Shown: piece after piece, positions 36,352 through 55,200 of the stretch | Numbering within the stretch: position 1 is the stretch's first letter | Layout: each line of letters begins with the position of its first letter | Source: a virus | Lineage: Duplodnaviria > Caudoviricetes | Virus record (IMG/VR): IMGVR_UViG_3300046822_000213 | Coordinates: 1-56,777 of that record | Reading direction: 5' to 3' (one strand) | Length of the DNA stretch: 56,777 nucleotides | Program-made: the position numbers and the translations under genes | Notes under the pieces: model-generated | Database searches by the model: none | What the model saw: the letters and a program-made list of their open reading frames with translations, nothing else | What the model was told of the DNA's origin: nothing

Positions 36352-36543
36352 CTAGGATTGATCTAGCGGTGAATCATCCTTGATCTGTTGCCGGTATCCT
36401 TGGGCAATCGCGTCACATAAACGACGATGTGACGTCGCTTCGCCCTGCAGGCTGCTGCCGCGCCATTGATCCTCATAGTCCCAGAATATGCGCGCGGCGA
36501 ACTCCCAAGCGGCGGCGTGCTGTTCTAAATCTTCATTGGTCAT
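36352..36543 (-). CDS. Hypothetical protein
   Basis: ATGA coupling with the helicase gene. Confidence 0.5.
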   Translation of the reverse strand: MTNEDLEQHAAAWEFAARIFWDYEDQWRGSSLQGEATSHRRLCDAIAQGYRQQIKDDSPLDQS

Positions 36544-37607
36544 CGGCTAATCACTATGATGCTGTGGGCAGCTCGGGTAATGCCGGTGTAGAGTACCGCC
36601 TTGCGGTCCTCATTGAAGCATTCGTCAACCAATATCACCTTGTTCCACTCGGACCCCTGCGAGCGGTGCACCGTCAGCGCGTAGCCAAAGGCGAAGGGTG
36701 ACCAGCCCTCCTCGTACTGTTCATTTTTAAAGTCCCGGCTGACGCCTTCGATCGTCGCCATTTCGATCTCTTCCTCATAGCCATCGATGTTGATGAAGAT
36801 GGTGGGATCGTATGGGTCGACGTCCGCCGCCAGCTCATACACCGCGCCATTGAGAATGCCGATCCGGTGGTTGTTCTTCATGCAAACCAGTGGCTCGCCC
36901 CGGCGCGGCGGCCCCTCAATGCCGAGATATTGGCGTTTCTTCATATTGGCGAGCTGCCGGGTCTTGTTGGTGTAACACAGTAGCATGTCGGCTTCGATGA
37001 ACTCATCGGGCGTCGTTTTGTACACCACCCGGAACTCCGGTCCGTCTTCCTCAAAACTGCCGCCGTTGCGGACGGCATGGGCCTGCCGGATGATTGGCGA
37101 ATCCAGTGCCTGCCGGTGAATGTTGGTCAGCATGACGTCAGCCTTGGCGAAGAATGGCTCGTCGCGGACTGGTGGAAGCTGACCAGGATCACCCGCTGCG
37201 ACGATTCTGGCCCCGGTATTTAACAGGACTTCAGCAACTCTGGTGCCGATCATCGAACTTTCATCGAGCATCACCAGCCGGTCGATCTGCTGCTCCCTCG
37301 CATCGAATTTGGGAGCCTTGATGCCACGGTCGTCATCGAGACCCAGCCCCCGGAAGTCATAGAAGGCTGAATGAATAGTCGATACGTTCATCCCGATGCG
37401 CTGCTGCAATACATAAGCGGCCTTGCCGGTGTAAGCCGCTAGGATTGCGTTGGGGTGGCGCTTGGCCAGCTCCGCCAGTACAACAGTTTTCCCAACCCCT
37501 GCAAGGCCATGTAGAGATAAGTACTGTCGATTTGTGTACCACCTTCCTGCAATGAAGGACTCTATTTTATCCAATGCTTTGATTTGATCCGGAGAAAATT
37601 TCACCAA
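36540..37607 (-). CDS. Dda/RecD-like SF1B helicase
   Basis: GLAGVGKT, AYTGKAA, LDESSM, GDPGQLPPV, LT.IHRQ, YALTVHRSQGSEW, LYTGITRA. Confidence 0.9.
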   Translation of the reverse strand: MVKFSPDQIKALDKIESFIAGRWYTNRQYLSLHGLAGVGKTVVLAELAKRHPNAILAAYTGKAAYVLQQRIGMNVSTIHSAFYDFRGLGLDDDRGIKAPKFDAREQQIDRLVMLDESSMIGTRVAEVLLNTGARIVAAGDPGQLPPVRDEPFFAKADVMLTNIHRQALDSPIIRQAHAVRNGGSFEEDGPEFRVVYKTTPDEFIEADMLLCYTNKTRQLANMKKRQYLGIEGPPRRGEPLVCMKNNHRIGILNGAVYELAADVDPYDPTIFINIDGYEEEIEMATIEGVSRDFKNEQYEEGWSPFAFGYALTVHRSQGSEWNKVILVDECFNEDRKAVLYTGITRAAHSIIVISR

Positions 37608-37628: not shown

Positions 37629-37913
37629 TCATGTTTGGTACTGCGCCAGTAACTTTTGCAGCCGTTTCACTTCCTTTTCCAACCGTTTGCTTTTCTTGCG
37701 CTCCACTGATAACACACCTTGATGATCGGCTTTTCCCATCCCCATAACGCCATACTTGATGAAGTACGGCGTCGCGCATAACAGTTTGCCCCAGAACGGC
37801 CCCTCCAAATTGCGCCGGATGTCGGAGTCATTAACCCCAACAATTACTTCATCCAACGCTGCGTGCAATCTCTCGTCGATTTCCGGTGGACCGTTTACTG
37901 ATTTCTTTCCCAT
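37629..37913 (-). CDS. Hypothetical protein
   Basis: AGAGAGGA RBS; overlaps the end of the SNF2 gene. Confidence 0.55.
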   Translation of the reverse strand: MGKKSVNGPPEIDERLHAALDEVIVGVNDSDIRRNLEGPFWGKLLCATPYFIKYGVMGMGKADHQGVLSVERKKSKRLEKEVKRLQKLLAQYQT

Positions 37914-39360
37914 TTTTAATTATCCTCTCTGGTAAAATGCGTAGCGCCTTGAAGACGCTCTCGACCATGTTGGCTTTGTATTGTAACGCCTCGGCTATCT
38001 TGTCGTCAATGGTCGAGCAGGAAATCGTGTGGTACACCACTGAATTGGTTTGACCGTAGCGGTGATTGCGATCAGCAGACTGCCACATGATGTCGGCGTC
38101 GAAGATGCACTCATAATACAACGTGGTTGAGCAGCGCTGGGTGTCGGTTCCCAGGAGAGTGTGGCCGCGCGCCCCCACGGTGAGTTGAGCCAGCATCACC
38201 TTGACGTTGTCATCCGTGTTGAATGCTAACTTGACCGCCTCAATTTCAGTGTCCTTCATCCCGCCGCGCAATACGACGAGACCATAGCCCTTCAGTGCCG
38301 TCGCCAGCGTCTCGACCGAGTGCCGGTGAAAGGCGAAGACGATGATTTTACCAGTGGTTGCTTCAATCACTTCCTTGGTGAGGTTGATCGCCGGGTTTTT
38401 GTCGGATGAGATCAAGTCACGAGCGACGCCTTCATTGTCAATAATGAAGCCACGGGCGATCTGCAGCAACTTGTTGTACATGTTACCGACATGAGCGGCA
38501 TAAATTACTTCCTCGCCCTCTTCCGGGTCCCAGATGGGCAAACCGGTGCAGTACTCCATCAGCATGCTGTCATACATTTCCTGCTGTAGCCGCTGCATCT
38601 CAAATTCAAGCGGGTGCGGCCAAATCTTCGGCGGCAGGTCGGTCCAGTCAACCTTGAGCGCCCGGATGCCGCAACTGGCGACGATGTTCTGGAACTCCAG
38701 CTCGCACTCCGGTCGCAGCCCTCGGGCCTCGCGTCCCTTGAAGCCGCCCATCACGGCAAAATGATTGCGGAAAGCGACTGGGTTCCAGCCGTTGAGCGCC
38801 CCACACCAGCGAAGCTGCGGATACATTTCCATGATGCTATTGGTCCAGGGCTGACCCGACATCGCCCGGAGCTGTTTAGCATAGCTTCGTAGAAACATTG
38901 CCTTCTTGTTCCACTTACCGCCGACCCTGGCGATCGCCCGGCTTTCATCGGCGGCCATCATGTACGGCGTGCCGGATTTCAGCAGTGCCTCCAGATGCTG
39001 GCCCCCAGAATGTAGCATCGACTCGTAGTTATAGACGATGGCGTGCGGCTCGCGGTACTCCCTGGCACCTACCTTTGGTACTTTAGGCCACGTGAATAGT
39101 GGGAACGGCATTTCCCACTTTGCCCATTCATCGCGCCACGTCGACTTGAGGTAGGACGGTGCCAGGATGACCAGCCCGGCGACGCGGCCCAGCGTCACTT
39201 CTCGCATGAAGTCGGCGCACAGCACCATCGACTTACCAAGGCCCATCTCCAGCCAATAACCATAGCGCTCGCGGTCGCGGCTGTGATCAAAGGCTAGCCG
39301 CTGCACTTCATATGGCTCGGCCTTCAGCGGCCAGTCATATGGCTTATCCACCACTTGCAT
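37849..39360 (-). CDS. SNF2-like SF2 helicase
   Basis: EMGLGKS, NYES, ADES, MSG.P, LLQI..GF, QS.DR.HRYGQ. Confidence 0.85.
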   Translation of the reverse strand: MQVVDKPYDWPLKAEPYEVQRLAFDHSRDRERYGYWLEMGLGKSMVLCADFMREVTLGRVAGLVILAPSYLKSTWRDEWAKWEMPFPLFTWPKVPKVGAREYREPHAIVYNYESMLHSGGQHLEALLKSGTPYMMAADESRAIARVGGKWNKKAMFLRSYAKQLRAMSGQPWTNSIMEMYPQLRWCGALNGWNPVAFRNHFAVMGGFKGREARGLRPECELEFQNIVASCGIRALKVDWTDLPPKIWPHPLEFEMQRLQQEMYDSMLMEYCTGLPIWDPEEGEEVIYAAHVGNMYNKLLQIARGFIIDNEGVARDLISSDKNPAINLTKEVIEATTGKIIVFAFHRHSVETLATALKGYGLVVLRGGMKDTEIEAVKLAFNTDDNVKVMLAQLTVGARGHTLLGTDTQRCSTTLYYECIFDADIMWQSADRNHRYGQTNSVVYHTISCSTIDDKIAEALQYKANMVESVFKALRILPERIIKNGKEISKRSTGNRREIARSVG

Positions 39361-39362
39361 CC

Positions 39363-39542
39363 TTATACGAGACCTTTCTCCTGGGCGAGCCATTCGGGCA
39401 TAGTGAATGACTCACCATCATGTTCAGTCAGGGACTTAGGCACCCAGCACTCGATTTCGCCGTCATTGATGAGATAAGCCAGCTCGGTCTCCCTGATGAG
39501 TTCGGCTTCGATCTCCACCGTCTCCCGCTCACGTGCCATCTG
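39363..39542 (-). CDS. Conserved small phage protein (W.PKS...TMPEWLA.EKGL)
   Basis: Recognisable motif; GGGTGA RBS. Confidence 0.7.
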   Translation of the reverse strand, partial: QMARERETVEIEAELIRETELAYLINDGEIECWVPKSLTEHDGESFTMPEWLAQEKGLV

Positions 39543-39957
39543 CGTCACCCCCTCTTATTTTGGTCTGGATGGCAACATCGGCCAAGAAAGCGTAGTTGGC
39601 AACGTCGGCCAATTCAAATAACGTGTTCATGTCGAGCGCATCGGCGGCGAATTGCTCTTCAAATTCAGTTATCTCGGATCGCAATCGCTCAATGATGCGC
39701 GGCACGTCATCCACCACGGGAGTTTGCTTGTGGCTGTTTTTATCCAGCTTGACCAGCATGGCAGTGAAAAACCGGTGTAGGTCGGTGTTATATTGGGCAA
39801 GTGACTTCGGGATAGTTAGTGTCAGTTCCACGTCGGTCTCCGCCGTTACACCATATTTAGGGCAGTGCGGTTCGTGATACCTGCCAAAGCCAGTGAAGCA
39901 AAAGCAGCAAGCCCCCGAAACATCCTCTGCTAGTTCTGTGTCGACTCCCAGTTCCAA
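39529..39957 (-). CDS. MazG-like all-alpha nucleotide pyrophosphohydrolase (MazZ candidate) with N-terminal Cys/His motif
   Basis: L..EI.EF......E.ADVAN.A acidic tetrad of MazG-like enzymes; two genes from purZ. Confidence 0.6.
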   Translation of the reverse strand: MELGVDTELAEDVSGACCFCFTGFGRYHEPHCPKYGVTAETDVELTLTIPKSLAQYNTDLHRFFTAMLVKLDKNSHKQTPVVDDVPRIIERLRSEITEFEEQFAADALDMNTLFELADVANYAFLADVAIQTKIRGGDADGT

Positions 39958-39966
39958 GTCGGCCCC

Positions 39967-40326
39967 TTATTCAATGACACGAAATTGGTCGCCATCGTTC
40001 ACTCGACGCCCGGTGCCACCGCGAAAGCGAATAACCCGCTGCGCTACCGGATGGCCCACCCACTGGTCCCATACCAAAAGGCCCCCTTCGACCTCTTCGA
40101 TGAAAATGGCGGCATGACTGCGGCCATCGGTGTGGTTACCGTAATGCCCGTCACTATCGAACGTGGCAATAGCCACGCCCCCTTCGAGGCCGCTGCCGCG
40201 CACCATGACACCGGGTTGCCAATGCGAAGTGTGCGGCGCATCCGTGCAAGTTTGGACGTATCTGACGCACTGGCCGTTAGCCACGACTTGCCCCTCATAG
40301 CCCTCTGGATTACTGGCGATCCACAT
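39967..40326 (-). CDS. BPSL0067-family papain-like peptidoglycan amidase (endolysin candidate)
   Basis: GQCV.YV...T..W..G..V....G.AIATF...G.Y.N...G.SHAAIF...V.DQW; GGAGG RBS before ATG 40326. Confidence 0.75.
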   Translation of the reverse strand: MWIASNPEGYEGQVVANGQCVRYVQTCTDAPHTSHWQPGVMVRGSGLEGGVAIATFDSDGHYGNHTDGRSHAAIFIEEVEGGLLVWDQWVGHPVAQRVIRFRGGTGRRVNDGDQFRVIE

Positions 40327-41452
40327 GTGTTCCTCCATCAGAGTTCCACGTCGGCTCTCGCTTATCGTACCACGACACTGCGGCGTCCAGGTTGTCGGTG
40401 ACATCCTCAACCGCTGGCCCGAAACCGTAAATGCGGTGAACATTTGCATTGCCTACCTTGCGCTCAATCCGCTGCATGTGATGTAGCAGACCCAAAAATG
40501 CCGTGCCGCTTGGCAGGTAGTTGCAGAAATTGAGGAAGACCATCGTCGGGCGGTTCAGCTCCAGCGCATCCTGGTACTGTTGATTGGACCACGAGGCGAT
40601 GCGCCGCATCCGCTTGGTGACAGTGGTGCGCTCTGGCTCGATACCGGGAAAGTCGCGCTTCCAATCCAGCTCAATCGAATCTGGGTAAAATGGCCCGCTG
40701 CGGCCCAGCAGCTCGCCCTGCTCGTTGTAAGAGTCACCGACCCGGATCGGGTAGGTCCGCATCGTCATGCAGATCGGCCCAATGAATGACGGATGAATAC
40801 CGGCATCGGACAGCCCGGCGGTGACGTAAGCATCGCGGCTGGTGCAGTATGGGTAGGCGTAGCCGTGGTTGAGGCTGAGACCGGCCCCCTGCGGAATTTC
40901 CAGGACGATCGACGCGTTGTAGATGTCCATCTCGCCGTTGAGGCACAGCGGCTCTACTTTCACCCAGGAAGGCAATTTTGATCCCTGGGCCAGCGGCGCG
41001 CGCCGCATTACTTTATCAGCGATCGCCTGTCCGACACCATGCATGGTCGAGGCGATCCGTGCCGGACCATTTTCTGGGATGCGCTCCGCCGCCTTCATCG
41101 CATCGGTAATGATTGACGCGCGCGGGTGCACTGTGATCCGCAGCCGGTCAATCTTGCAATCCTCGACTTCTTGCTCAAATGACGGCAGGTCAATGATTGA
41201 ACCGGCGTTGATGTAAATTCTGGATTCGGGCCGCAACACCCCCGTCGTTGGCAGGGTGTAGCAGATGAATTTCCAGCCATCGACGATCGAAGTGTGACCA
41301 GCGTTTGCGCCGCTGTTGCAGGTAGCAATTCCAACCGGATCGCGGCAAAATCTTGCTAGCCATGCGGCAGCGGCCCCCTTACCGGTCGACCCAAAGGCCC
41401 CGTCACATAGCACCGATACTTTGCCACATTTTGACCACTCGCCAACCGTCAT
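40310..41452 (-). CDS. purZ: PurZ-type N6-succino-2-amino-2'-deoxyadenylate synthase (adenylosuccinate synthetase paralogue)
   Basis: P-loop FGSTGKG (Ser where PurA has the catalytic Asp in GDEGKG), NAGHT, YPYCTSR, TYPIRVG, TTVT, FLNFCNY in place of PurA TKLD. Confidence 0.85.
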   Translation of the reverse strand: MTVGEWSKCGKVSVLCDGAFGSTGKGAAAAWLARFCRDPVGIATCNSGANAGHTSIVDGWKFICYTLPTTGVLRPESRIYINAGSIIDLPSFEQEVEDCKIDRLRITVHPRASIITDAMKAAERIPENGPARIASTMHGVGQAIADKVMRRAPLAQGSKLPSWVKVEPLCLNGEMDIYNASIVLEIPQGAGLSLNHGYAYPYCTSRDAYVTAGLSDAGIHPSFIGPICMTMRTYPIRVGDSYNEQGELLGRSGPFYPDSIELDWKRDFPGIEPERTTVTKRMRRIASWSNQQYQDALELNRPTMVFLNFCNYLPSGTAFLGLLHHMQRIERKVGNANVHRIYGFGPAVEDVTDNLDAAVSWYDKREPTWNSDGGTHVDRQ

Positions 41453-41992: not shown

Positions 41993-42493
41993 TCACGCCT
42001 CCATACAAGCACGGATGGCGGTCTTGTGTCTAGACATCTCATGAGAAACTAGCAGCCGCTGCATGATGGCGACGATTGGCCATGCTCCGCCGCGATCACG
42101 GAACAAGCCGACACGTGCCGGATCCACGTTCAAATCAACCAATAGTGGCGACGCCATCAGGACATGATCAGCTTCATGGTCAGTGCCAACCTGCATCGCC
42201 ACCCGACCAGTGCCGGATTTCACTTCGACCGCCAAGATCCATCCGGCGCAGCCCCCCGCCTGCTGCACTTCGCGCAAGAACTTACTTTGGTGCGCGGTTA
42301 ATTCCAGCGGATAGCGTTCCGACAACCGCAGCCCGCGTAGGAACTTAACCTCTAGGAACCAATGAGGATAGCCCGGCAACACCAGCGACAGGTCAGCTAC
42401 CCCTACCGTGAAAGCATTGCTGCACTTAAAGCCGTGGCCCCCGGCGTCATTGGCAGCTTTGGCCAGCGCGGCCTGGATCAATAATTCGTTGAT
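41993..42493 (-). CDS. VRR-NUC / PD-(D/E)xK nuclease (Holliday junction resolvase candidate)
   Basis: GVADL......FLEVK...LT.HQ.KFL......GG; start either TTG 42481 or ATC 42493. Confidence 0.7.
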   Translation of the reverse strand: MNELLIQAALAKAANDAGGHGFKCSNAFTVGVADLSLVLPGYPHWFLEVKFLRGLRLSERYPLELTAHQSKFLREVQQAGGCAGWILAVEVKSGTGRVAMQVGTDHEADHVLMASPLLVDLNVDPARVGLFRDRGGAWPIVAIMQRLLVSHEMSRHKTAIRACMEA

Positions 42494-43089
42494 ATCAACC
42501 TCCCTTTACGCGAGTTATCCCTCGCCCACAACGGTTGAATATTAGTGAAGTGACAAGCCGCCAAGAATTGTTCCCGATTAGTAAGATCAAAAGAAGCTAA
42601 CGGGCGTATATGATCAAGATGCCACTTACCATAATTATTCCAGGACATGCCTGTCCAAAAAAGCGTTTCGATGTAATCCCGAAACGCTGAAATAGTGCAC
42701 CCAAGATCGCGGACAGCGGACCCAGCGCGGGCATTCGAGCGAACTGCCATGTTAAGACGAGTTCGAAGCTTTTGTCGAAGCATTGTCAAAGGATGTTTGC
42801 TTCGGCATGTCGGGCAACGACCGTAACCCGGAGCGTTGGCTGTCGGAATAAAAATGCGGCTACACACAACACATGACTTAATCCGTCGCGGTTTTCTCTT
42901 TTGCCTACATGTTCCGCATCGCGACCTTGCCCCTTGACTTGGCGTAGTTTTAAACGTACGCTCGCAGTCAAGACACACTCGCTCCTGTATGGGCTGTGAT
43001 CTAACGTGACATCTATTACAACGCCCGCCCCCCGGTCTAGCACGTGGCGGGGTGTAGTCTTTGCCGCAATCACGGCAGATTTTAGTCAT
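42478..43089 (-). CDS. HNH endonuclease with N-terminal Zn-finger repeats
   Basis: LGCT...F..Y.E..F..GMSW.NYG.WHLDHI.PL..FDL.....HFTN.QPLW..DN..KG; three CxxC..CxxC units; AT-richer than its neighbours. Confidence 0.8.
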   Translation of the reverse strand: MTKICRDCGKDYTPPRARPGGGRCNRCHVRSQPIQERVCLDCERTFKTTPSQGARSRCGTCRQKRKPRRIKSCVVCSRIFIPTANAPGYGRCPTCRSKHPLTMLRQKLRTRLNMAVRSNARAGSAVRDLGCTISAFRDYIETLFWTGMSWNNYGKWHLDHIRPLASFDLTNREQFLAACHFTNIQPLWARDNSRKGRLISTNY

Positions 43090-45080
43090 ACGGCCTCTCC
43101 CGTGGCCGTCCGCTGCATGAGAGGCGTCGCGGCTATAGATATAGCGGCCAGCGTGCCTCCCTGCACCAGAGAGGCCGCGACGGGCGTCGCCTGGGGCATC
43201 TGGACCGCCCCGCGCACCCGGTCGTAGTCGCTGCCCATCTCGCGGAAGGCGTCACGCACCTGACCGAGACCGTAGGACGCCTCCGCCCAGTTGGCCCCCT
43301 CGTCCACCTCAAGGGCCAGCGGCACGGTCAGATCGAACTTCTGGCCGGGTCCGTAATCCTCGGTCATCATCACCAGTGCGCGTTGGTAGACTTGTTGGTT
43401 GTCCGGATGATAGCTGAAATCGAGGCTGTCGTGCACATTGTTGAGCAAGAAAGTCGTATCGCCCTGCGCCATCAGATATTCGTCGATCTCGGCCATCGAC
43501 CGCTTTAAGATATCGGCGTTGCTGGTTTGCAGGATGCGATTAAGCGCCCGGTAGGCAAAATTCGGATTAGGCTCACGTGACCGGCGGCCCATCAATGACT
43601 TGATGTAACCACGCTGCTCCATGACGCCGGTAGCATAAGACTGGAAGCCACCATTGCCCGGAACTGCCGGGCTATTTTTATTCAGTTCGGGCATTGCCTC
43701 GAAGTAATCATTGACAATTTGGTCGGCCTCGGCCTGTGGGCGGTTCAACATCAGCGCTGCCTTGCGGCGACCACAGCCGGTCAGCAGCGCTTGGTTTAGT
43801 TGCTTACCCGCCTGCCTTGGAATATTGGCAGCGAGCGCGACCGCTGAATGAGCATCGATCGGCGGGTCAGACATGTAACCTTCAATCAGCACCTTTACTT
43901 GAGCAAAATGGGCGAGGAGACGCGGCTCGATTTGGCTGTAGTCAGGCGATCCCCAGACATGCCCTTCTTCCGGGATGAAGATCGAGCGGAACAACGACCC
44001 AAGGATCGGGTCACGTTTGTTCACCTGCTGTAGATTCGGGTCACTGGATGATAGCCGCCCGGTGACGGTACCGTACTGCTCACCTCGGGTCTGGTTGTAG
44101 CTGGTGTGAACCCTGCCGTTCCACAGGTGGCGCTCCGCCATCGGGCGCAGGAAGGCGTTTTCGAGATGGGACAGCTTGCGGACAGTAACGATGTCGCGGC
44201 CCAGTGGCGTGGTCAGCAACCAATGCTCAGCAAAGGACGGGATGCCATTTGGATGCATCTTGCTGGGAGCGGTCATCGGCCAGTTGGTGAGACTGGCGTC
44301 GGTGAAGATCTGCTTAAGCTGGGTAGGTGCATTTTCATTGAAGCCGGGCGGCAGGCGACGCCGGGCCTGCTCCATTCGCTGCTTGATCATCCGGCGCACC
44401 TGATCGAGCCGCTCCTCATCGATTCGCACGCCGCGCACCATCATCCGGTGCAGCACTCGAATGCAGCGATTCTCGATCTCCCAAATACCGGTCAGGTTCT
44501 GGGAAGCGATCTCTGGTAACTGAGCATCGCGTAGCTGCCACGTGCTGGTGCCGTCGCCCACCGCGTAGTCGACTGCAACGGCGTCGTCACCAGCCAGCTT
44601 CCAGTAGTGCTGCATTTGCTTGCGATCAGGCGTCCCGCCGAAACGCCCGGCCAAACGCTTGTACAACTCTTCACCCTTTTTCTCCTGGACCTTCATTGCG
44701 ATGCAGCAGGCTTCCAGGGTGAATGATCGCTGGTTTTCATCAATGAGATAGGCATTGATCTGGGCGTCCTCCAGTGGCCCCCTAATTTCGACATCATCGC
44801 GGTGCATGAATTTGAGATCAAAGCTATAGGAGAAGCCGATCGTGCGCAGGTCGGGCCGCGACAGGTGACGGCGCAGCATCGCTAATGTCTTGTCCGGGTC
44901 GAGGTTGCCGCCGCCGCCGTGCCGGATCGGCAGGTAATGCGAGTCCGCAGGATTGCCGGAAAAGGTCAGGACGTAACCAACGGTGTGGTCGTTTTTCCAG
45001 TCCAACCCGGTCGTCTCGGTGTCGATCACCAGCTCTTTGGCGGCGTCGATGCGGCTGGCGATCCAGCTAAGGTCGATCAT
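43086..45080 (-). CDS. Family A DNA polymerase with 3'-5' exonuclease (DpoZ candidate)
   Basis: DTETTG exonuclease motif, TGRLSSSDPNLQ, motif A DYSQIEPR, motif C VHDS; no 5'-3' exonuclease domain. Confidence 0.9.
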   Translation of the reverse strand: MIDLSWIASRIDAAKELVIDTETTGLDWKNDHTVGYVLTFSGNPADSHYLPIRHGGGGNLDPDKTLAMLRRHLSRPDLRTIGFSYSFDLKFMHRDDVEIRGPLEDAQINAYLIDENQRSFTLEACCIAMKVQEKKGEELYKRLAGRFGGTPDRKQMQHYWKLAGDDAVAVDYAVGDGTSTWQLRDAQLPEIASQNLTGIWEIENRCIRVLHRMMVRGVRIDEERLDQVRRMIKQRMEQARRRLPPGFNENAPTQLKQIFTDASLTNWPMTAPSKMHPNGIPSFAEHWLLTTPLGRDIVTVRKLSHLENAFLRPMAERHLWNGRVHTSYNQTRGEQYGTVTGRLSSSDPNLQQVNKRDPILGSLFRSIFIPEEGHVWGSPDYSQIEPRLLAHFAQVKVLIEGYMSDPPIDAHSAVALAANIPRQAGKQLNQALLTGCGRRKAALMLNRPQAEADQIVNDYFEAMPELNKNSPAVPGNGGFQSYATGVMEQRGYIKSLMGRRSREPNPNFAYRALNRILQTSNADILKRSMAEIDEYLMAQGDTTFLLNNVHDSLDFSYHPDNQQVYQRALVMMTEDYGPGQKFDLTVPLALEVDEGANWAEASYGLGQVRDAFREMGSDYDRVRGAVQMPQATPVAASLVQGGTLAAISIAATPLMQRTATGEAV
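43091..43187. repeat. Inverted-repeat element with GCTATAGATATAGC core (copy 3, inside the polymerase 3' end)
   Basis: Core 43132-43145 is identical to 23832-23845; flanked by cggcctctc / gagaggccg. Confidence 0.75.
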
Positions 45081-45456: not shown

Positions 45457-46347
45457 TTAGAAGCGGCTCTCTTTCTGAGCCATCTCTTCGGTTACGTTTA
45501 CCCTACCGCCACCGCTAGTGTCCGACGTCTCGTCCTGTGCACCCTCCATGTCGCGCAGCACGACTGGGGTTGCCTTGAAGACTTCGGCCATCGACTTATA
45601 CTCGTCATACTGGTCCGGGTCCGTAATAAAACCGTCCGTCATGAAGCGGTAGTTATGGAACTGCTGATCCTGCGGCCCATCGACGACGGACGACATGACG
45701 AACCTGATGCCATATACCGGCACTTTGATGCTCATGAACTTGATCTTGCTCAGCAGTTTGCGCACCACCGACAAGGAGGAGCGCTGCAACATCATCGCCA
45801 CCGGTCCGACTTCCGGATACTCTTCGATCGCGATCACCAGCACGTGGCACTCGGTCGCGGCGGGCGGCGACTTATAGTCGGACGGGTCATAGGTACCCCA
45901 CTCGGCTAGCCGCGACTCTGCCACGGTTGGCCGAGTGCGCCACACTACCTCGGTGCCGCGCTTGTCGACCTTCACCTTGAACTCGGCATTAGGCGGGTTC
46001 CAGTGGATCTCGTCATCAGCGCGAGCCAGGATGCCACCCTTATCGATCGGCGGGCGGGGTGCCCATAATACGTAGCGCCGCGTGGCATTCAGCACCGTGA
46101 TGGTTAGCTTGCTGCCCAGGCTCTGCTCCAGCGTAGTGTGGAAGAAATCTCCAGCCTTGACGCCGTCATAATTCTGGATCTCAGGGGAGATGCCCTGGAT
46201 CAATTTCAGCCGGGGCATCTCGAAGCTGGATGTCGACCAGCCTTCGGTGCCTTTACCGGCATCACCGCGCATGAACTCTGGCACGTCGCCCATGATACCG
46301 ACCGCGCCGCCGTTTTTCTTAGCCTCGACTTCCTGTGACTTGGCCAT
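45457..46347 (-). CDS. Putative ssDNA-binding / replication accessory protein
   Basis: PRLKLIQ.ISPE motif, acidic tail ending in Phe, upstream of the polymerase. Confidence 0.45.
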   Translation of the reverse strand: MAKSQEVEAKKNGGAVGIMGDVPEFMRGDAGKGTEGWSTSSFEMPRLKLIQGISPEIQNYDGVKAGDFFHTTLEQSLGSKLTITVLNATRRYVLWAPRPPIDKGGILARADDEIHWNPPNAEFKVKVDKRGTEVVWRTRPTVAESRLAEWGTYDPSDYKSPPAATECHVLVIAIEEYPEVGPVAMMLQRSSLSVVRKLLSKIKFMSIKVPVYGIRFVMSSVVDGPQDQQFHNYRFMTDGFITDPDQYDEYKSMAEVFKATPVVLRDMEGAQDETSDTSGGGRVNVTEEMAQKESRF

Positions 46348-46403
46348 CGCTACTTGTCCTCTCTTTATTGGGCCAGATTATGTCGCGCCCGGCCCGCTGC
46401 GCG

Positions 46404-47021
46404 TCACTTCACTTTGGTGATTGAAGTGTTGGGCTGGTAGTAAGCGTGGAACAGCTCCTCGGGCAGGTCGCGCCCTTCGTCAATAAACGTCTTTCCCGCC
46501 GCATTTAGCGTACCGGAATTGACTGTTTGTGTGATGAGCGCTTCCAGCCCGTTGTCCCGCAGCCACTGATGGGCGGCCTCTTTCTGATCCGCCTTGATCG
46601 AAGTCTTTAGCGCAACCGAGATGGTCACGCGGTAGCCTTCAAGAGTGGTAAAAGAGGAGATCTTTTCGCGCTCAAAGGCCGCCGGGATGATTTCCTGCCC
46701 CAGATTTTGGTACTGCTCGTCCAATAGCTTGGTGGCTTCGGACATCGCGTCCCTGATCTGGCGGAGCGCGGTGTAGACGTGCGCCAGCCCGGATGCCGTA
46801 TTGGTGCGCCGAATCATTGGGAGGAGGGTAGCTTCAACCTTAGTCTTCAGCGCTACAGCGCCCTTCACGCCCCAATCGCGAAAAGTCTCGATTGTCGGGT
46901 CCCATACCCGCCGGTTTGCTGCTTCCAGCTCCCGGTCGAGATCGGCCTTATCTTCATCCGACAGCCGGGATAGTTCGGTCAGATCCTCAGGCGTTAACTC
47001 TCTCGCATCGCTCATCGTCAA
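46404..47021 (-). CDS. Conserved phage replication-cluster protein
   Basis: WLR.NG...LI...VN..TL.A......G..LP motif; GATAGAGGA RBS. Confidence 0.65.
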   Translation of the reverse strand: MTMSDARELTPEDLTELSRLSDEDKADLDRELEAANRRVWDPTIETFRDWGVKGAVALKTKVEATLLPMIRRTNTASGLAHVYTALRQIRDAMSEATKLLDEQYQNLGQEIIPAAFEREKISSFTTLEGYRVTISVALKTSIKADQKEAAHQWLRDNGLEALITQTVNSGTLNAAGKTFIDEGRDLPEELFHAYYQPNTSITKVK

Positions 47022-47370
47022 GCTCCTTATCCTCTATCAACAAGGGGTAGTAGCACTTCTCCTGCCGATCGTAGCGCAGCAAGCGGACCGGTGATATGCC
47101 CAGTGAACCCAAAACATAGCTGCACACCGCCAAATGAACCGGCGAACCGATCAGGCACAGGTAGTCCTGTTCTGGGTCGTAGTGCTGTAGGTAGCTGTGC
47201 GCCTCTTCGAGCAGCGCTGGCATTCGAACGTCGCCGTTATCCGGAAACACGTCGCGGCGCGAGATGACGATCGGCGTGCCAAAGCGACAAGCATCTGAAA
47301 TATCCAGACGCCCATCGCTGTGCGGCACCCAGACTTGTGGGCCTCGCTGCATGGCGTGATCCTTGATCAT
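46987..47370 (-). CDS. Conserved hypothetical protein (small Rossmann-like; DYL.L.G.P...L.YD....Y)
   Basis: Motif pattern; preceded by TTGACG-18-TCTAAT (47377-47406), possibly leaderless. Confidence 0.6.
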   Translation of the reverse strand: MIKDHAMQRGPQVWVPHSDGRLDISDACRFGTPIVISRRDVFPDNGDVRMPALLEEAHSYLQHYDPEQDYLCLIGSPVHLAVCSYVLGSLGISPVRLLRYDRQEKCYYPLLIEDKELDDERCERVNA

Positions 47371-49516: not shown

Positions 49517-51037
49517 TTACTCGGATGGCGTCCACAGCTTGCAGCAGTCGATCGGGGAGATCGGCGGCTCTACCTTCGCGCAGGCATCGCGCCCGTGGAA
49601 GTGTTCACATTCCGCGCAATGGTGCGGTCCTTGGGATGGCCGCTCGTACATCACGGAGTCGTGATCGCGCAGCTTCTGCGCATCGTGGACCTTGGGGGGC
49701 ATCAAATGCTCTGACGCTATCTTCCGGTCGCGTCCTCGGTTAAGAAAGGCATGTAGCTGGTGGTGCGGCACCAGAGATACCCCTTCACTTTCCCAGCCGT
49801 GTCCGGTCGGCGTCCCGCCCTCTCGGACAGCATGATAGTAGCGGGTCATCGAAGTGTCGCCCTCGTAATCCCCAGCATGGCCCACGATCCGGCCCTTCAG
49901 CCCGGATTCCTCGAAGGCCTCCTTGATCGCGGTGGCCTGCAGCGAATGGCCCTTCTCCCGGCCACCTTTAGGGAAAGTATACTTGTAGCCGCCGTAGGCG
50001 TTGGTCGGCTTGATGATCCAAACCCGACCATCCGGCTCACGCATCAGCAGCCCGGCACCTACCTTTTTGCCCTTGGAGTTCAACGGCGGCTCTGAGATGT
50101 CGGCTTGCCCCTCGACCTTGCTCCAGTCGGCTGGCGGCTTGAATGGCTTGAACGGCACGCCATGTAGGTCGGGCGGATCGGGGTCGCCCTCCTTGAAGTG
50201 AGCGGCACCCGACCCAAACTGACCGCCTTTGCTCCGCTTATGTTCGGATTCCACCCAGTCGTCATGAACGTGGACGCGCACACCAGTTATACGGTCAAAT
50301 GCTTTTTCCAAAAGCGGATTGACCCTGACACCCGATTTGCCGTAATCTTGATGACTGTAAGCCGAAAACGACTCGGCTATCCATTCCTTCGGGTTCAGCG
50401 AAGCATAAGTTGATAACTCTTTTGAAATAGAATCTTTGTTTGCTGCGAATACTTTATCAACAGATATTAACCGACCAACAGCCTCTTCAAGCGAATGCCC
50501 GATCTCATGTCTAAGTAAATCAGCCAGTGTACCGCCGACAACTGTTGTTTTTTCATCGACCTTTACGCCACCACGTTTAAGAGGTTGCGGTGTATCTATT
50601 ATAAGCTGACCACTTAAATATAACTCGCCCCCGTTCTCAGGAATATACATTCCCAAACCGTCATCTTGCAGTAAATCTTCGTAGCCTACCCCAATACCGC
50701 CTTGTACTCTTCTAGCAAATTTCAGCTTTGGAAATCGCGTTTTAAGATCGGTCAAAGTATGGTCAATAATTCCCAGAGAGCTTCGATAATCATCCTCCGT
50801 AAAATCTTCACTGTAATTTCCACTTACAGCAACACCATGTTTCTTGGTGAAACTTTCTTCAACTTTATCAATAGACTGTTTTGACTTTGACTTTGATCCC
50901 CCACCTTCAGTGAATTTACCGCCTGCTTCTCGCGGGTGTTTTTCCTCTTTGAACTCCGCATCCTTAGTCTCATCCTCGTCTACTTCATCGTAGTCATGAA
51001 CGTGGACGCGTAGACCGGGCGATGAGTGCAGCAACAT
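49517..51037 (-). CDS. Polyvalent protein: zincin-like metallopeptidase + Nudix hydrolase + HiPIP-like Cys domain
   Basis: HEIGH...YA..N..EWIAESF; Nudix box GG.E.......AIKEAFEESG; CxxCxxF....C..V...I.P..CC..W. Confidence 0.75.
   Translation of the reverse strand: MLLHSSPGLRVHVHDYDEVDEDETKDAEFKEEKHPREAGGKFTEGGGSKSKSKQSIDKVEESFTKKHGVAVSGNYSEDFTEDDYRSSLGIIDHTLTDLKTRFPKLKFARRVQGGIGVGYEDLLQDDGLGMYIPENGGELYLSGQLIIDTPQPLKRGGVKVDEKTTVVGGTLADLLRHEIGHSLEEAVGRLISVDKVFAANKDSISKELSTYASLNPKEWIAESFSAYSHQDYGKSGVRVNPLLEKAFDRITGVRVHVHDDWVESEHKRSKGGQFGSGAAHFKEGDPDPPDLHGVPFKPFKPPADWSKVEGQADISEPPLNSKGKKVGAGLLMREPDGRVWIIKPTNAYGGYKYTFPKGGREKGHSLQATAIKEAFEESGLKGRIVGHAGDYEGDTSMTRYYHAVREGGTPTGHGWESEGVSLVPHHQLHAFLNRGRDRKIASEHLMPPKVHDAQKLRDHDSVMYERPSQGPHHCAECEHFHGRDACAKVEPPISPIDCCKLWTPSE
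50261..51010. repeat. 18-bp perfect direct repeat (gtcatgaacgtggacgcg at 50261 and 50993) bounding an AT-rich cassette
   Basis: Both copies encode RVHVHD on the - strand; spacing is 732 nt (in frame). Confidence 0.85.
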
Positions 51038-52225: not shown

Positions 52226-52254
52226 ATTAAAACACACTTTGACAAGCCTGTCAA
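52226..52254 (-). promoter_or_regulatory. Sigma70-type promoter TTGACA-17-TTTAAT with TTGACA..TGTCAA palindrome
   Basis: Reverse complement ttgacaggcttgtcaaagtgtgttttaat. Confidence 0.7.
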
Positions 52255-55200
52255 GCGGCCAAGGGCTGGGGCGACGGCTGGATCAGCTCGCTGAGCTTCT
52301 CATGATGGACGGCACCCGCGCCACGCCCGGAACGCATCAAGGTCACCTCCATCTCCAGCTTATTGGGGTCGAAGTTGTCGATGCGGAACTTTGAACCGCG
52401 CTGAATCAAGATTTCGTTCTCGCCAGGGTGATCCGAATAATGGCCGATCGCCGCCGCCTGCGCGCCCTTCGGCAGATTGATCTTGAGGGTCAGCTTGCCC
52501 GACCAGTGATCGGTCGATGCGAACCCAAAATCCTGGAAGATGTGGACATCGTCTTGGGTCTCCTCCATCAGCCATTCGGCGAAGTCGCTGCTGACCCGGC
52601 GCTTGACGGTGATCGCCTCGGGCAAGCTGGCCTTGCTGAGGTAGGACGCCAGCGCATCGGTCGGATAGCCGCCCGATTTCTTGCCGAATGACCCGCGCAG
52701 CGCTTCATTCCATGGGTCGTAGGACCCGCCAGAATACTTGAAGATAGCGGCGGCCTCGGCCTTGGTCGGGATCGGGGCCTGCTTCAATCGGGCCTTGTAG
52801 GTGTCGTCCCAATTCCCGTTGGTGTGATGTTTCTTGGGCGGGGCCTTTTCCGGCGGCACCGCGCCGGGCGTCGCACCGGGCGCGGTAGCGATACCGGCCT
52901 GCGCGGCGATGGCATCGCGGCGCTTGATCAGCTTCTTGGCTAACTCGATCTTCTCTTCATCGGTGCCGGGACCAAACTTGGCGACGGCAGCGATGATGTC
53001 ACTGTTGCTAATGGCGGCGACAGCTTTCGCCCCCTCCTGCAATTGTTCGGGCGCAGCCTTGCTGAAAAATGCCACCGCTTGCGGATTGGAATAACCCGAC
53101 TTCATGCTCTCCCATTCACCGGCATCATTATCGAAAGCGGAGCCTTTCAGTCCGCCCTGAGCGCGATAAATCAGCGCGCCGCCGACATCCATCGGCGTCA
53201 CTTTGCCATTGATCACACCCATATTATCATCGGCCAGACCTACCGCGTCCCAGTTCGCCAGCCAAGCATGGACAGCGTATTGTTTAAATGCCTCGTTCTG
53301 CTCCGCTAGCGTCATATTGGCAGTACCCATCTTGGCATCTGACCAATCGGTAACGATTCGCTCAGGGTAGTCGGTGTCCTGGTGGTAGGTCAAGGTCGGG
53401 ACGCCAGCCATCGAATAGAGCGACGCCGCCAGCATCTCATTCTGGGCGTGACTGACCGACTTGGTATCCTTGACGTAGTACTTTTTGCCGGTGTCGGGGT
53501 CCTCGTAAGTACCGCCGGGATTCGAGCCAAGATTGCTGCCCAGCTTTTTCCAATGGGTGCCGTCGACCGGGTGCGCCACGGCTGTCGGGGCCTTGGGTCC
53601 AGCCGCAGCCGGTGGCGGCGGGATATTGGCTAGATGATCCTCCAGCCCGTTGGCTCCCGCCCCCTCGATGACATAAGCACTACCGTCGCCCTTGGGTAAG
53701 ATATGCTTCCACTCGGACTTGCCTTCAGCATTGACGTCCTTGTGGACATAGAGCAGCCCGCCGCCCACCTCATATGAGTTGACGTTGGGATCGCTCGACC
53801 CGACCGGCTTGGCACCAGCCTTATTCAACGATATTGCGATGAAAGAATTGGGATGAAGCGGTGCAGCGGCGTCAGGTGGCGGTTTCGGCCCGCCGCTGCC
53901 AGCCAACATCTCTGACAACATTTTAGCACCATTACCCGGCTTAGCGTTCGTAGGGTCATATTGAAGCAGGAAACCCGTATCGTACTTGTTTAAGGTCAGT
54001 TTTTTACCATCTGGAAAGGTGTAAATGTCCACATAGTTTGAGGCTTTGACGAGAGTGGCACCGGAATCTGTTAATGCCTGTTCCATCGCTGAATCAGGAT
54101 GAGATATCTTGGGTTTCTCTGCCGGTGGCGTCAGCCCGCCGCCCGTGTGCTTCAATGGCGCGTGCTTCGCCGTCTCGGCCTGCAGACTGGCGAGGTCGCT
54201 ACCCTTGGCAATGACGCCGTCACCTGATCTCCAGACTTCCCAACCAGACCCGTCATTGAAGACGTGGACGGCCATCGACTTAGCGGTGATGCTTTGGGCG
54301 GGGAAGTAGAACTCCTTGATCTTCTGGCCGCCATTGATGGTAGCGTCTGATATTTCGGGGGTTTGCTCCATCCCAGCCAAAAAATGGCCCAGCGCATCGC
54401 GCTTGTGTTTAGCTTCGAATGCAGCATTGATCGCGCCCGGATCTCCCTGTATTGCATGCTTGGCGAACTCCGCCTCGACGTCATCCGGCTCTTCAAAACC
54501 GCTGTTGTCCGGTTCAACTTCTGGCTCAAATATATTGTCGAGCGGCTCGATGTGGTGCAGTGCGGCGCTCAGCTCCTTGTACCCAGCACCGGCTTCATAT
54601 TGGTCTCCGGTGGTGTTGTCACCGATCGACCATTCATGAACGCCCTCGTCATTCGGTTCCTTGGATATTTCGATATCCATGCCGCCCGGCGTCTTGAGGT
54701 TGTGATAGTACATGTCGTCTTCACCAGGATCAACGATCAACTGGTGTTCCTCGACCAGACTGTGGATGTCAGTGACAGGTTTTTTCTTGGGCGGGGCCGT
54801 CATTTGGAGAAATTGATCCAACTCATCCGGGCCTTCGCCCGACATCATGACGCCGCCCAGACTGTTCTTCACCTGGAAACTGCCGGTGACGGAGTTGAGA
54901 TGCACCGTATCACCAGTCGGCGGATTGTGATAAACCAGGGTGAAGCCGGGCGCAGGCTTGATATGGTCAGCCGACTCAAAGCCCGCTTCATTGAGAGCCT
55001 GACCAAAAGTCGTCTTTGGGGCGGGCTTGGGTTCCGGCTCGGACAGCGACGTCTTGGTGCCGACGCCATTCTGCAACACTGCGCCCAAATTCACCGCACC
55101 GAAACCCGACTGGCTCTTACCCTGCATGTTGGTAATGATCCAGCCCACCTTGCCGTCTGGGTTCGGATGATGGTTAACCACGACAGTGCTGCCATCCGGA

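Follow-up and report, generated by a model that had tools for sequence, protein, structure and literature searches.

The window, a stretch of 56,777 nucleotides covering positions 1 to 56,777 of the IMG/VR virus record IMGVR_UViG_3300046822_000213, encodes a family A DNA polymerase (PolA) in which two residues of motif B that are conserved in the family are replaced by Gln and Thr, and purZ lies close by. The locus raises the question of whether this enzyme is one of the DpoZ-type polymerases that prefer 2-aminoadenine (Z) over adenine (A), and whether the Gln/Thr (Q/T) pair contributes to such a preference. The features on which the answer rests are collected in the table.

Table. The polymerase gene, its conserved motifs and its neighbours, in window coordinates.
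Feature	Product or residues	Position	Strand	Basis or remark
Family A DNA polymerase with 3'-5' exonuclease domain	P0001, 664 aa	43086..45080	(-)	Pfam, HMMER, AF2
Exo I, Exo II and Exo III	D20 and E22; F87-D88; Y172 and D176	44551..45023	(-)	residue map
Motif A	DYSQIE, D380-E385 (Klenow D705-E710)	43926..43943	(-)	metal ligand and steric-gate Glu kept
Motif B (O-helix)	RQAGKQLNQALLTG, R422-G435	43776..43817	(-)	Q430 = Klenow F762 (B3); T434 = Klenow Y766 (B4)
Motif C	H550-D551-S552 (Klenow H881-D882-E883)	43425..43433	(-)	residue map
Endonuclease VII-like protein, directly downstream of the polymerase		42478..43089	(-)	phrog_1035, E 3.5e-10
Two ORFs between the endonuclease and purZ	197 aa and 162 aa	41449..42481	(-)	PHROG families without an assigned function
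PurZ-type 2-aminoadenylosuccinate synthetase	P0002, 380 aa, P-loop GSTGKG	40310..41452	(-)	Adenylsucc_synt, E 2.6e-25
Small MazG-like NTP pyrophosphohydrolase (MazZ-like)		39529..39957	(-)	tblastn
SNF2-type helicase, same replication module		37849-39393	(-)	Pfam/PHROG
Dda-like helicase, same replication module		36540-37607	(-)	Pfam/PHROG

P0001 was the sole DNA polymerase detected in the record (one PF00476 match), and a search of the record for a Prim-Pol found none. The protein matched the Pfam families DNA_pol_A (E 1.1e-52) and DNA_pol_A_exo1 (E 5.5e-07), both over the cut-off, and sequence searches matched it to Klenow (E 1e-42) and to the DpoZ of phage phiVC8 (7pbk, E 8.6e-41). Its AF2 model had a pLDDT of 86, with 1d8y and 7pbk as the top Foldseek matches. 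Every catalytic residue of both active sites was intact: D380, E385, R422, K426, H550 and D551 correspond to Klenow D705, E710, R754, K758, H881 and D882, and D20, E22, D88, Y172 and D176 correspond to Klenow D355, E357, D424, Y497 and D501. Motif C retains the catalytic HD pair and has Ser in place of the Glu; phiVC8 DpoZ has this Ser too, as S583 (PMC8599892 section 13). Since the set of exonuclease catalytic residues is complete, P0001 is expected to proofread.

HMMER aligned motif B of P0001 (RQAGKQLNQALLTG, within the translated stretch NIPRQAGKQLNQALLTGCGRR) to that of Klenow (RRSAKAINFGLIYG) without a gap, which bore out the claim of the sequence-only reading that F762 has become Gln and Y766 has become Thr; the E. 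coli motif quoted there is identical to the translated polA of NC_000913.3, and the site that it had marked, 43765-43820, contains the motif. The register is R754=R422, K758=K426, N761=N429, F762=Q430, Y766=T434 and G767=G435, and on the minus strand the codons of R422, Q430 (caa) and T434 (acc) occupy positions 43815-43817, 43791-43793 and 43779-43781, respectively. The O-helix is predicted to be helical over residues 422-433 in the AF2 model. P0001 thus departs from the family A profile at B3 and B4, neither of which is a catalytic position. That 762 is normally Phe, Tyr or Leu and 766 aromatic, as had also been claimed, is backed by the literature, in which only Leu, Tyr and Phe were counted at 762 (PMC6302109) and the B4 Tyr is described as "otherwise strictly conserved" (PMC8599892 section 13). 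Among the 120 homologues listed, at 43-100% identity and out of 7505 with E ≤ 1e-20, B3 was Gln in all 120, and B4 was Thr in 117 and Ser in three. The pattern was a purifying one, the residues fixed in a clade-specific manner being Q430, T434, N521 (Klenow A852), G425 and F87. The Q/T motif is a fixed clade signature and is neither a chance occurrence nor a sequencing error. Neither Gln at 762, residue 766 nor adenylosuccinate is mentioned in PMC6302109 or PMC9069017, and no Gln762/Thr766 clade was found in the cluster table of PMC10201439 or in a listing of openly accessible papers that mention DpoZ.

The polymerase gene lies near purZ, on the same strand and in the same replication module. 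The earlier description of the polymerase as being next to purZ held in that purZ is located 1.6 kb downstream with three ORFs between. The name purZ was likewise appropriate, as P0002 is closest to the PurZ proteins of known Z-genome phages, its best phage matches being the annotated PurZ of Klebsiella, Ochrobactrum, PMBT28, phiVC8 and S-2L phages, and has the Ser in its P-loop. This Ser, at the position of the catalytic PurA Asp (S22), was invariant in the PurZ alignment (9/9) and was present in 179 of 181 PurZ-like matches across loci; the Ser-for-Asp replacement is the P-loop criterion of PurZ given in the preprint 10.1101/2025.10.22.683976. The MazG-like ORF was matched by tblastn at 39583-39837 (Ochrobactrum phage OH p33, E 1.2e-10; phiVC8 p26, E 2.4e-4), while Pfam and PDB sequence searches with it gave no match. 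The 197-aa and 162-aa ORFs had a weak match to DUF6378, below the cut-off, and no PDB relative was found for them. Another ORF, at 39967-40449, was the only one of three small ORFs around purZ with a PDB match, which was to a T6SS amidase-like protein. Positions 49517-51037 encode a NUDIX protein.

No HD/DatZ, DUF550 or dUTPase gene was found in the window. Specifically, there was no match at E ≤ 1 to an HD-domain dATPase (DatZ; PF12917 or PF13023), the record being 76% complete, so that a DatZ-like gene could sit in the missing part; of the complete Z-cluster of PurZ, MazZ and DatZ, the DatZ component is the one that this 76%-complete record lacks. Searches by tblastn with the DatZ, MazZ and Dut proteins of five reference phages returned the MazG-like ORF only. 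Among five complete genomes of the Q/T clade, a YfbR-like HD gene adjoined purZ in three and a DatZ-like gene was absent from two.

The linkage of motif B variants to PurZ was surveyed in IMG/VR loci and named phage records, the loci being chosen by similarity to queries, which makes the counts a non-random sample. In 76 of 80 polymerase-anchored IMG/VR loci a PurZ match was present 0.4-4 kb downstream, and one of the remaining four had PurZ elsewhere on the contig. When distinct polymerases were counted, those with Q/T at B3/B4 were PurZ-linked in 34 cases and PurZ-less in none, with the flank uninformative in one; the corresponding numbers were 27 and 0 for M/T, 8 and 0 for L/T, 3 and 0 for M/N, 7 and 7 for L/Y, and 5 and 43 for F/Y, the five including one PurA-like match. 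All 69 distinct polymerases with Thr at B4 and informative flanks were PurZ-linked. A blind scan for the DNA pattern gave 36 matches, 35 of them to this polymerase and one by chance, and three of the contigs were new, each with PurZ. The purZ-less phages with the Q/T motif that would have spoken against the sequence-only reading were therefore not encountered, either in the survey (34 versus 0) or in the pattern scan, and the Q/T subclade was always PurZ-linked. PurZ was also found beside PolAs that bear the Tyr (L/Y and F/Y) or without a nearby PolA, which indicates that Q/T is not needed for the PurZ lifestyle, and the PurZ-linked relatives with Tyr at B4 indicate that the Tyr need not be lost. 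There are also F/F and F/G polymerases with no PurZ.

Three trees placed the window polymerase, the Ochrobactrum phage OH enzyme and the PurZ-linked loci in one clade with support of 100, apart from a phiVC8-like clade (98-100) and a clade of PurZ-less L/Y polymerases from HTVC023P, DSL-LC04, Ab18 and YuA (97-99). In every tree, including the final one, which was a mixture-model quick tree without bootstrap values, these three clades formed a polytomy. The Q/T clade is nested within the wider PurZ-linked clade that includes phage OH, and members of the latter with Leu or Met at B3 and Thr, Asn, Ser or Tyr at B4 are also PurZ-linked, which implies that PurZ linkage is older than the change to Gln. 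The wider clade also contains a nested PurZ-less lineage that has kept the Tyr; the contigs of L214 and L215 are complete PurZ-less genomes whose L/Y polymerase is sister to a PurZ-linked group with M/T, L/T and M/S. The lineage is distinct from the phiVC8-like and Wayne-like DpoZ clades, and because the wider clade is separate from both, the O-helix Tyr was lost in three PurZ-linked groups. The proposal that the enzyme was independently adapted consequently stood in one respect, its position outside both published DpoZ clades, but not in others, given that PurZ linkage predates the Gln and that the relationship to phiVC8-like DpoZ is a polytomy. A tree-aware test yielded five independent contrasts, of which a mean of 3.4 were in the expected direction, 0 in the opposite direction and 1.6 without difference (median p 0.125); with five contrasts, the association of B4 with PurZ is suggestive and not proven.

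Taken together, these analyses suggest that P0001 is probably the replicative, proofreading PolA of an uncultured dZTP-making phage and represents a third DpoZ-type lineage, with Q430/T434 as the signature of a subclade. The lineage appears to be hitherto undescribed, and the validated phiDpoZ1 and phiDpoZ2 (10.1101/2025.10.22.683976) may or may not belong to it. In this phage, dZTP would be made by PurZ and the MazG-like hydrolase. F762 and Y766 of Klenow are packed onto the incoming nucleotide's sugar and gate the templating base, and the small, polar Q430 and T434 in their place might loosen the grip on the nascent pair, so that insertion and extension would lean more on the strength of the pair itself. 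Z:T, with three hydrogen bonds, would then be extended, and A:T would stall more often and be passed to the intact exonuclease, a kinetic-partition logic like that proposed for phiVC8 DpoZ. Selectivity of P0001 for dZTP over dATP is thus a prediction. The change that the other PurZ-linked clades have in common with it is loss of the B4 Tyr and not the Gln at B3. A broader version, whose probability is rather low, is that loss of the B4 Tyr is a convergent adaptation to 2-aminoadenine DNA that arose on three or more occasions (Phe separately in the phiVC8-like and the Wayne-like enzymes, Thr/Ser/Asn in the present ones, with Tyr in the PurZ-less lineage), and that the Q430/T434 pocket, together with N521, is its most derived form, with an intrinsic, exonuclease-independent dZTP selectivity that might let some phages dispense with the DatZ dATPase.

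Alternatively, Q/T may be no more than a lineage marker in a phage that replicates a Z-genome and excludes A through its nucleotide pool, by PurZ and MazG-like, DatZ-like or NUDIX hydrolases, with Q430/T434 tolerated or compensated and without a role in the choice between Z and A. Such a marker is doubtful but deserves to be taken seriously, as S-2L keeps A out by DatZ together with an unselective PrimPol (PMC10201439, PMC8599892), and the YfbR-like HD gene beside purZ in three of the five complete Q/T-clade genomes, the NUDIX protein at 49517-51037, the Tyr kept at B4 in PurZ-linked relatives and the younger age of the Gln change relative to PurZ linkage all fit it; changes fixed together with Q430/T434, N521 among others, could be compensatory. 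It is harder to reconcile with the occurrence of non-Tyr residues at B4 in three separate PurZ-linked groups and of Tyr in the nested PurZ-less lineage, or with the failure to find a DatZ-like gene in two of the five complete Q/T genomes and in this 76%-complete record. The Gln was moreover invariant among the homologues listed, down to 43% identity, which argues for selection on Q430.

It is also conceivable, although improbable, that the Q/T pocket serves a trait other than recognition of the purine 2-amino group, such as sugar discrimination against rNTPs or ddNTPs, a balance of speed and fidelity, or another modified nucleotide. Residue 762 controls the discrimination of dideoxynucleotides and has an influence on activity, B4 aids the discrimination of dNTPs from NTPs (PMC10201439; PMC8599892 section 13), and in the virioplankton the type of residue at 762 goes along with the phage's style of replication (PMC6302109). 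This possibility, however, leaves the PurZ linkage of all 69 Thr-at-B4 polymerases with informative flanks unexplained, the steric-gate Glu E385 is retained, and no other base-modification gene was found beside the polymerase. An artefact, whether misalignment, frameshift or a decayed and inactive gene, is extremely improbable. The O-helix insertion of phiVC8 DpoZ is misplaced by sequence alignment alone (PMC8599892), but here an open frame runs through 664 codons, the alignment to Klenow is gapless with R, K, N and G in register, the confident AF2 model matches Klenow and DpoZ, all catalytic residues are there, and all 120 listed homologues share the motif; misalignment and a pseudogene were therefore rejected.

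The preferred reading, that of a third DpoZ-type lineage, bears on an unsolved problem, the basis of the DpoZ preference for Z over A. The DpoZ of phiVC8 is the only one with a solved structure, and no single determinant emerged from it. Its exonuclease-dead form retains the Z/A ratio (PMC8599892 sections 13-15), which places the discrimination outside the exonuclease site. Tyr-to-Phe at B4 is the sole change common to both known DpoZ clades (PMC8599892 sections 13-15), and was earlier dismissed as too conservative; the B4 change was judged unlikely to affect discrimination between A and Z (PMC10201439). A third and much larger PurZ-linked lineage, which has Thr, Ser or Asn in place of the Tyr and in which a nested PurZ-less lineage has the Tyr, makes B4 a hypothesis that can be tested by mutagenesis. 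The Q/T enzymes are also exceptions to the rule of Phe, Tyr or Leu at 762 and Tyr at 766, and dropped out of earlier virioplankton PolA surveys because these excluded sequences in which 762 was not conserved. The engineering of ZTGC-DNA polymerases could naturally start from these enzymes.

Among known systems, P0001 resembles phiVC8-like DpoZ (PolA cluster #18 or DpoZ-2; 7PBK) in being a PolA of the Klenow fold with a 3'-5' exonuclease, whose gene has purZ only a few genes away, that has lost the B4 Tyr and has HDS in motif C (Foldseek E 7.6e-31). Its identity to 7pbk is only 24-25%, however, and that to the phiVC8-like phage enzymes is about 28-30%, no closer than to Klenow. The defining features of the phiVC8-like enzymes are a loop in helix O, Leu at B3 and Phe at B4 (PMC8599892), whereas in P0001 nothing is inserted between R422 and K426, and Q/T stands in place of L/F. 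None of 58 phage records matching phiVC8 DpoZ at E ≤ 1e-60 fell in the lineage of the window. Membership of the phiVC8-like group was ruled out by this difference in motif and by separation from phiVC8, PMBT28 and SH-Ab 15497 in the trees. Wayne-like DpoZ (PolA cluster #19 or DpoZ-1) is also a PurZ-linked PolA without the B4 Tyr, but it has F/F in motif B, belongs to actinophages with a dUTPase-like gene instead of MazZ and DatZ, and forms a very long, distant branch; membership of this group was ruled out by the trees and by the F/F motif.

Klenow, the best PDB match by sequence and by structure, shares the fold and the catalytic residues of both active sites, and differs from P0001 in F762 (Q), Y766 (T), E883 (S) and A852 (N) and in that P0001 has no 5'-3' exonuclease domain. 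The Leu762/Tyr766 PolAs of HTVC023P, DSL-LC04, Ab18 and YuA are likewise phage replicative enzymes of similar size, at 28-30% identity, but have Leu at B3 and Tyr at B4, and PurZ was not found in these four complete genomes. The closest cultured relative is the DNA polymerase I of Ochrobactrum phage vB_OspP_OH (QIG66084.1; 33% identity over 89% of the protein), which differs in having M/S in motif B (RDIGKRMAMGMLSM) and in the 5'-nucleotidase (HD-like) gene of its phage, which the window lacks, but belongs to the same wider clade, has also lost the B4 Tyr and is encoded in a similar order of polymerase, nuclease, small ORFs, PurZ and MazG-like gene.

Motif B of P0001, the window's family A DNA polymerase (PolA), reads RQAGKQLNQALLTG and was aligned without gaps by HMMER to its Klenow counterpart, RRSAKAINFGLIYG, which was verified against the polA translation of NC_000913.3. 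This alignment equates Klenow R754, K758, N761, F762, Y766 and G767 with R422, K426, N429, Q430, T434 and G435 of P0001, and the sequence-only reading of Gln and Thr at Klenow positions 762 (B3) and 766 (B4), hereafter Q/T, was therefore correct; the two codons are caa and acc. Both active sites have their full catalytic set (D380, E385, H550, D551, D20, E22, D88, Y172 and D176), the single active-site replacement being Ser for Klenow E883, and a 3'-5' exonuclease domain was detected (Pfam, E 5.5e-07). The AlphaFold2 model (mean pLDDT 86) matched Klenow (1d8y) and phiVC8 DpoZ, a PolA of Z-genome phages (7pbk), best and with nearly equal scores. No second polymerase was detected in this 56,777-base IMG/VR virus record (completeness estimate 76%), leaving P0001 as the sole one. 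At the sequence level, P0001 is an intact proofreading PolA within a PurZ and MazG-like module.

The closest phage matches of the adenylosuccinate-synthetase homologue were PurZ (2-aminoadenylosuccinate synthetase) proteins from phages known or annotated as having Z genomes, with identities of 38% (Klebsiella phage), 37% (Ochrobactrum phage vB_OspP_OH, OH), 35% (PMBT28), 34.5% (phiVC8) and 33% (S-2L). Its P-loop, GSTGKG, carries Ser at the Asp position of PurA; this Ser is invariant across the PurZ alignment, and its replacement of Asp is the PurZ criterion in preprint 10.1101/2025.10.22.683976. The claim that the polymerase adjoins purZ was borne out by these matches and the diagnostic Ser. 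Genes for HD-type DatZ (a dATPase), DUF550, dUTPase and Prim-Pol were searched for within the window (record 76% complete), and none was found.

Features of the window discussed in the text
Feature	Position	Strand	Remarks
P0001, family A DNA polymerase, 664 residues	43086-45080	minus	Pfam DNA_pol_A, E 1.1e-52
Codon of Q430	43791-43793	minus	caa
Codon of T434	43779-43781	minus	acc
purZ, adenylosuccinate-synthetase homologue	40310-41452	minus	1.6 kb downstream of polymerase, same strand
MazG-like small ORF	39529-39957	minus	matches pyrophosphohydrolases adjoining PurZ in OH (E 1e-10) and phiVC8 (E 2e-4)
160-aa ORF between purZ and MazG-like gene	39967-40449	minus	resembles T6SS peptidoglycan amidase effector (PDB 6win, E 6e-11)
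Three successive ORFs upstream of polymerase	45457-47370	minus	Pam3 gp34-, gp33- and gp32-like families (PF23977, PF23984, PF23992), function unknown
506-aa protein	49517-51037	minus	NUDIX domain, residues 325-439, E 7e-12
1319-aa protein	52251-56210	minus	C-terminal ~150 residues match ADP-ribosyltransferase (ART) exoenzyme family (PF03496, E 4e-15)

The 506-aa NUDIX protein, whose long N-terminal part gave only a sub-threshold metalloprotease-like match, is a candidate nucleotide-pool hydrolase in this record without DatZ. A possible identity for the 1319-aa protein is a large ART-domain protein of the virion, or one that is ejected. As annotated, the 160-aa ORF starts within purZ, with an overlap of 140 nt at the purZ end; the real start is therefore probably further downstream.

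A word-indexed protein search with P0001 scored 8000 candidates, 7505 of them at E<=1e-20; among the 120 matches listed (43-100% identity), B3 was Gln in all 120 and B4 was Thr in 117 and Ser in three. In an exhaustive profile search of 50%-identity representatives (13,414 proteins at E<=1e-30), the best 150 were typed at B3/B4 as L/Y (42), F/Y (35), Q/T (20), M/T (16), M/N (7), Q/S (2) and Gln with B4 unaligned (1), the remainder being of other types. Five residues, Q430, T434, N521 (Klenow A852, adjoining Q849), G425 and F87, were fixed throughout the Q/T group but seldom seen in Tyr-bearing relatives. Across these sequences Q/T is a clade signature, not an isolated oddity, and the unusual pocket residues of P0001 are evidently under conservation. 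Several clade polymerases (among P0009, P0067, P0123, P0127, P0129, P0133, P0135 and others) were 850-990 aa long and matched the profile in two stretches, with intein or HNH domains in the precomputed Pfam annotation of some; since the profile breaks at motif A (after DYSQ-C), inteins appear to lie inside this catalytic motif.

A polymerase-anchored IMG/VR scan confirmed 157 relatives. Of the 80 best loci, 76 had a PurZ homologue 0.4-4 kb beyond the polymerase on its downstream side; in the remaining four the sequence ended too near the polymerase. In one of these four (L044) PurZ was found at the opposite end of a terminally repeated contig; it was not found in the other three, all fragments or contig ends. 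A scan of IMG/VR independent of overall similarity, with a degenerate DNA pattern encoding R..GK..NQ...TG.G, gave 36 matches, 35 to this polymerase and one by chance, and all three previously unseen contigs had PurZ. Loci of four IMG/VR scans were then pooled, a locus being informative if it had a PurZ match or if both flanks were 4 kb or longer. Distinct polymerases with PurZ, without PurZ and of unknown state numbered 34, 0 and 1 for Q/T, 27, 0 and 3 for M/T, 8, 0 and 0 for L/T, 3, 0 and 0 for M/N, 7, 7 and 3 for L/Y, and 5, 43 and 41 for F/Y, counts that describe fetched loci, picked by similarity to queries and in one scan anchored on PurZ, and not the virosphere. One of the five F/Y cases with PurZ was a PurA-like match with Asp in the P-loop. 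In the data reached, Q/T was thus not common in purZ-less phages, and the condition set for refuting the sequence-only proposal did not arise. PurZ homologues with the diagnostic Ser were also observed on very large viral contigs of 80-290 kb (L155, L160, L169, L170, L175, L177, L182, L185 and others), where a family A polymerase was either missing from the nearest 8 kb or of the Klenow-like F/Y type; PurZ is evidently also accompanied by other polymerase types.

Four trees were built (FastTree, 119 and 128 rows; IQ-TREE LG+G4, 68 rows; IQ-TREE C20 mixture, 44 rows), and all four placed P0001, OH and PurZ-linked IMG/VR polymerases in one clade (support 99-100), which included every PurZ-linked Q/T, M/T, L/T and M/N enzyme and some L/Y ones. 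The Q/T subclade alone had an SH-aLRT of 89 (68-row tree), and together with its L/T relatives a support of 96-100 (68-, 128- and 44-row trees); P0130 (M/N) and L025 (Q/L) are secondary departures nested within it. PurZ linkage is, on these trees, older than the Gln substitution, and a PurZ lifestyle is possible without Q/T. The proposal of an independently adapted polymerase was accordingly supported only in part: P0001 stands in a separate DpoZ-type lineage, but PurZ linkage predates its Gln.

The P0001 lineage is the third PurZ-linked group without Tyr at B4, having Thr, Ser or Asn instead. In the phiVC8-like and Wayne-like DpoZ clades this Tyr is Phe, the one substitution that the two have in common (PMC8599892). 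Two PurZ-less IMG/VR contigs, L214 (66.5 kb) and L215 (64.3 kb), each a 100% complete phage genome, encode an L/Y polymerase (...NLG[MI][LM]YT) inside the PurZ-linked clade, sister to the M/T, L/T and M/S group with PurZ (support 96, 128- and 44-row trees), and offer a natural contrast for the role of B4. At the clade base stands the F/Y enzyme of L275, a PurZ-less contig 74% complete. Four PurZ-linked L/Y groups within the clade, and F/F and F/G enzymes that occur without PurZ, speak against a strict B4 rule. The 128-row tree required six changes of PurZ state and nine of B4 state; over five independent phylogenetic contrasts, B4 differed as expected in a mean of 3.4, in the opposite direction in 0 and not at all in 1.6 (median p 0.125), a consistent but not significant pattern.

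The sugar of a nucleotide entering a Pol I enzyme is contacted by F762, which packs against it; the templating base is gated by Y766, a neighbour of the steric-gate Glu. Given these roles, small polar residues at both B3 and B4 would loosen the packing of protein against nucleotide and make insertion and extension depend on how strong the nascent pair is, so that Z:T (Z, 2-aminoadenine) would be favoured and A:T sent to the exonuclease. This proposal extends the backtracking model put forward for phiVC8 DpoZ, and the dZTP selectivity of P0001 is putative. B3 has been described as involved in dideoxynucleotide discrimination (PMC10201439) and B4 as helping to distinguish dNTPs from NTPs (PMC10201439, PMC8599892), and an exonuclease-dead triple mutant of phiVC8 DpoZ is reported to have the wild-type A-to-Z ratio (PMC8599892). 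A DatZ-like HD gene was present in three of five complete Q/T-clade genomes and absent from two; nucleotide-pool control thus varies across the clade, and a share for the polymerase is conceivable.

In the available text of a 19-cluster PolA classification (PMC10201439), the Z-phage clusters are phiVC8-like and Wayne-like only, and that of a 2026 paper (PMC12884076) again gives two DpoZ groups among NCBI viruses; no description of the present clade or of the Q/T motif was found in the searchable literature. The phiVC8-like DpoZ clade and a PurZ-less L/Y clade, each well supported, lie outside the P0001/OH clade and form a polytomy with it. At E<=1e-60, a tblastn search with phiVC8 DpoZ returned 58 phage records. 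Their identities were 41% or higher throughout, and neither OH nor members of the P0001 lineage were among them; together with the separate supported clades, this rules out membership of P0001 in phiVC8-like DpoZ. Among the enzymes compared, which do not include the two 'novel DpoZ' of preprint 10.1101/2025.10.22.683976, P0001 falls in a DpoZ-type lineage that is new, large and uncultured. Its Q/T motif differs from F/Y in Klenow, L/F in phiVC8, ZP6, PMBT28 and SH-Ab 15497, F/F in Wayne, M/S in OH, whose genome has PurZ, and L/Y in HTVC023P, DSL-LC04, Ab18 and YuA, all four complete genomes without PurZ.
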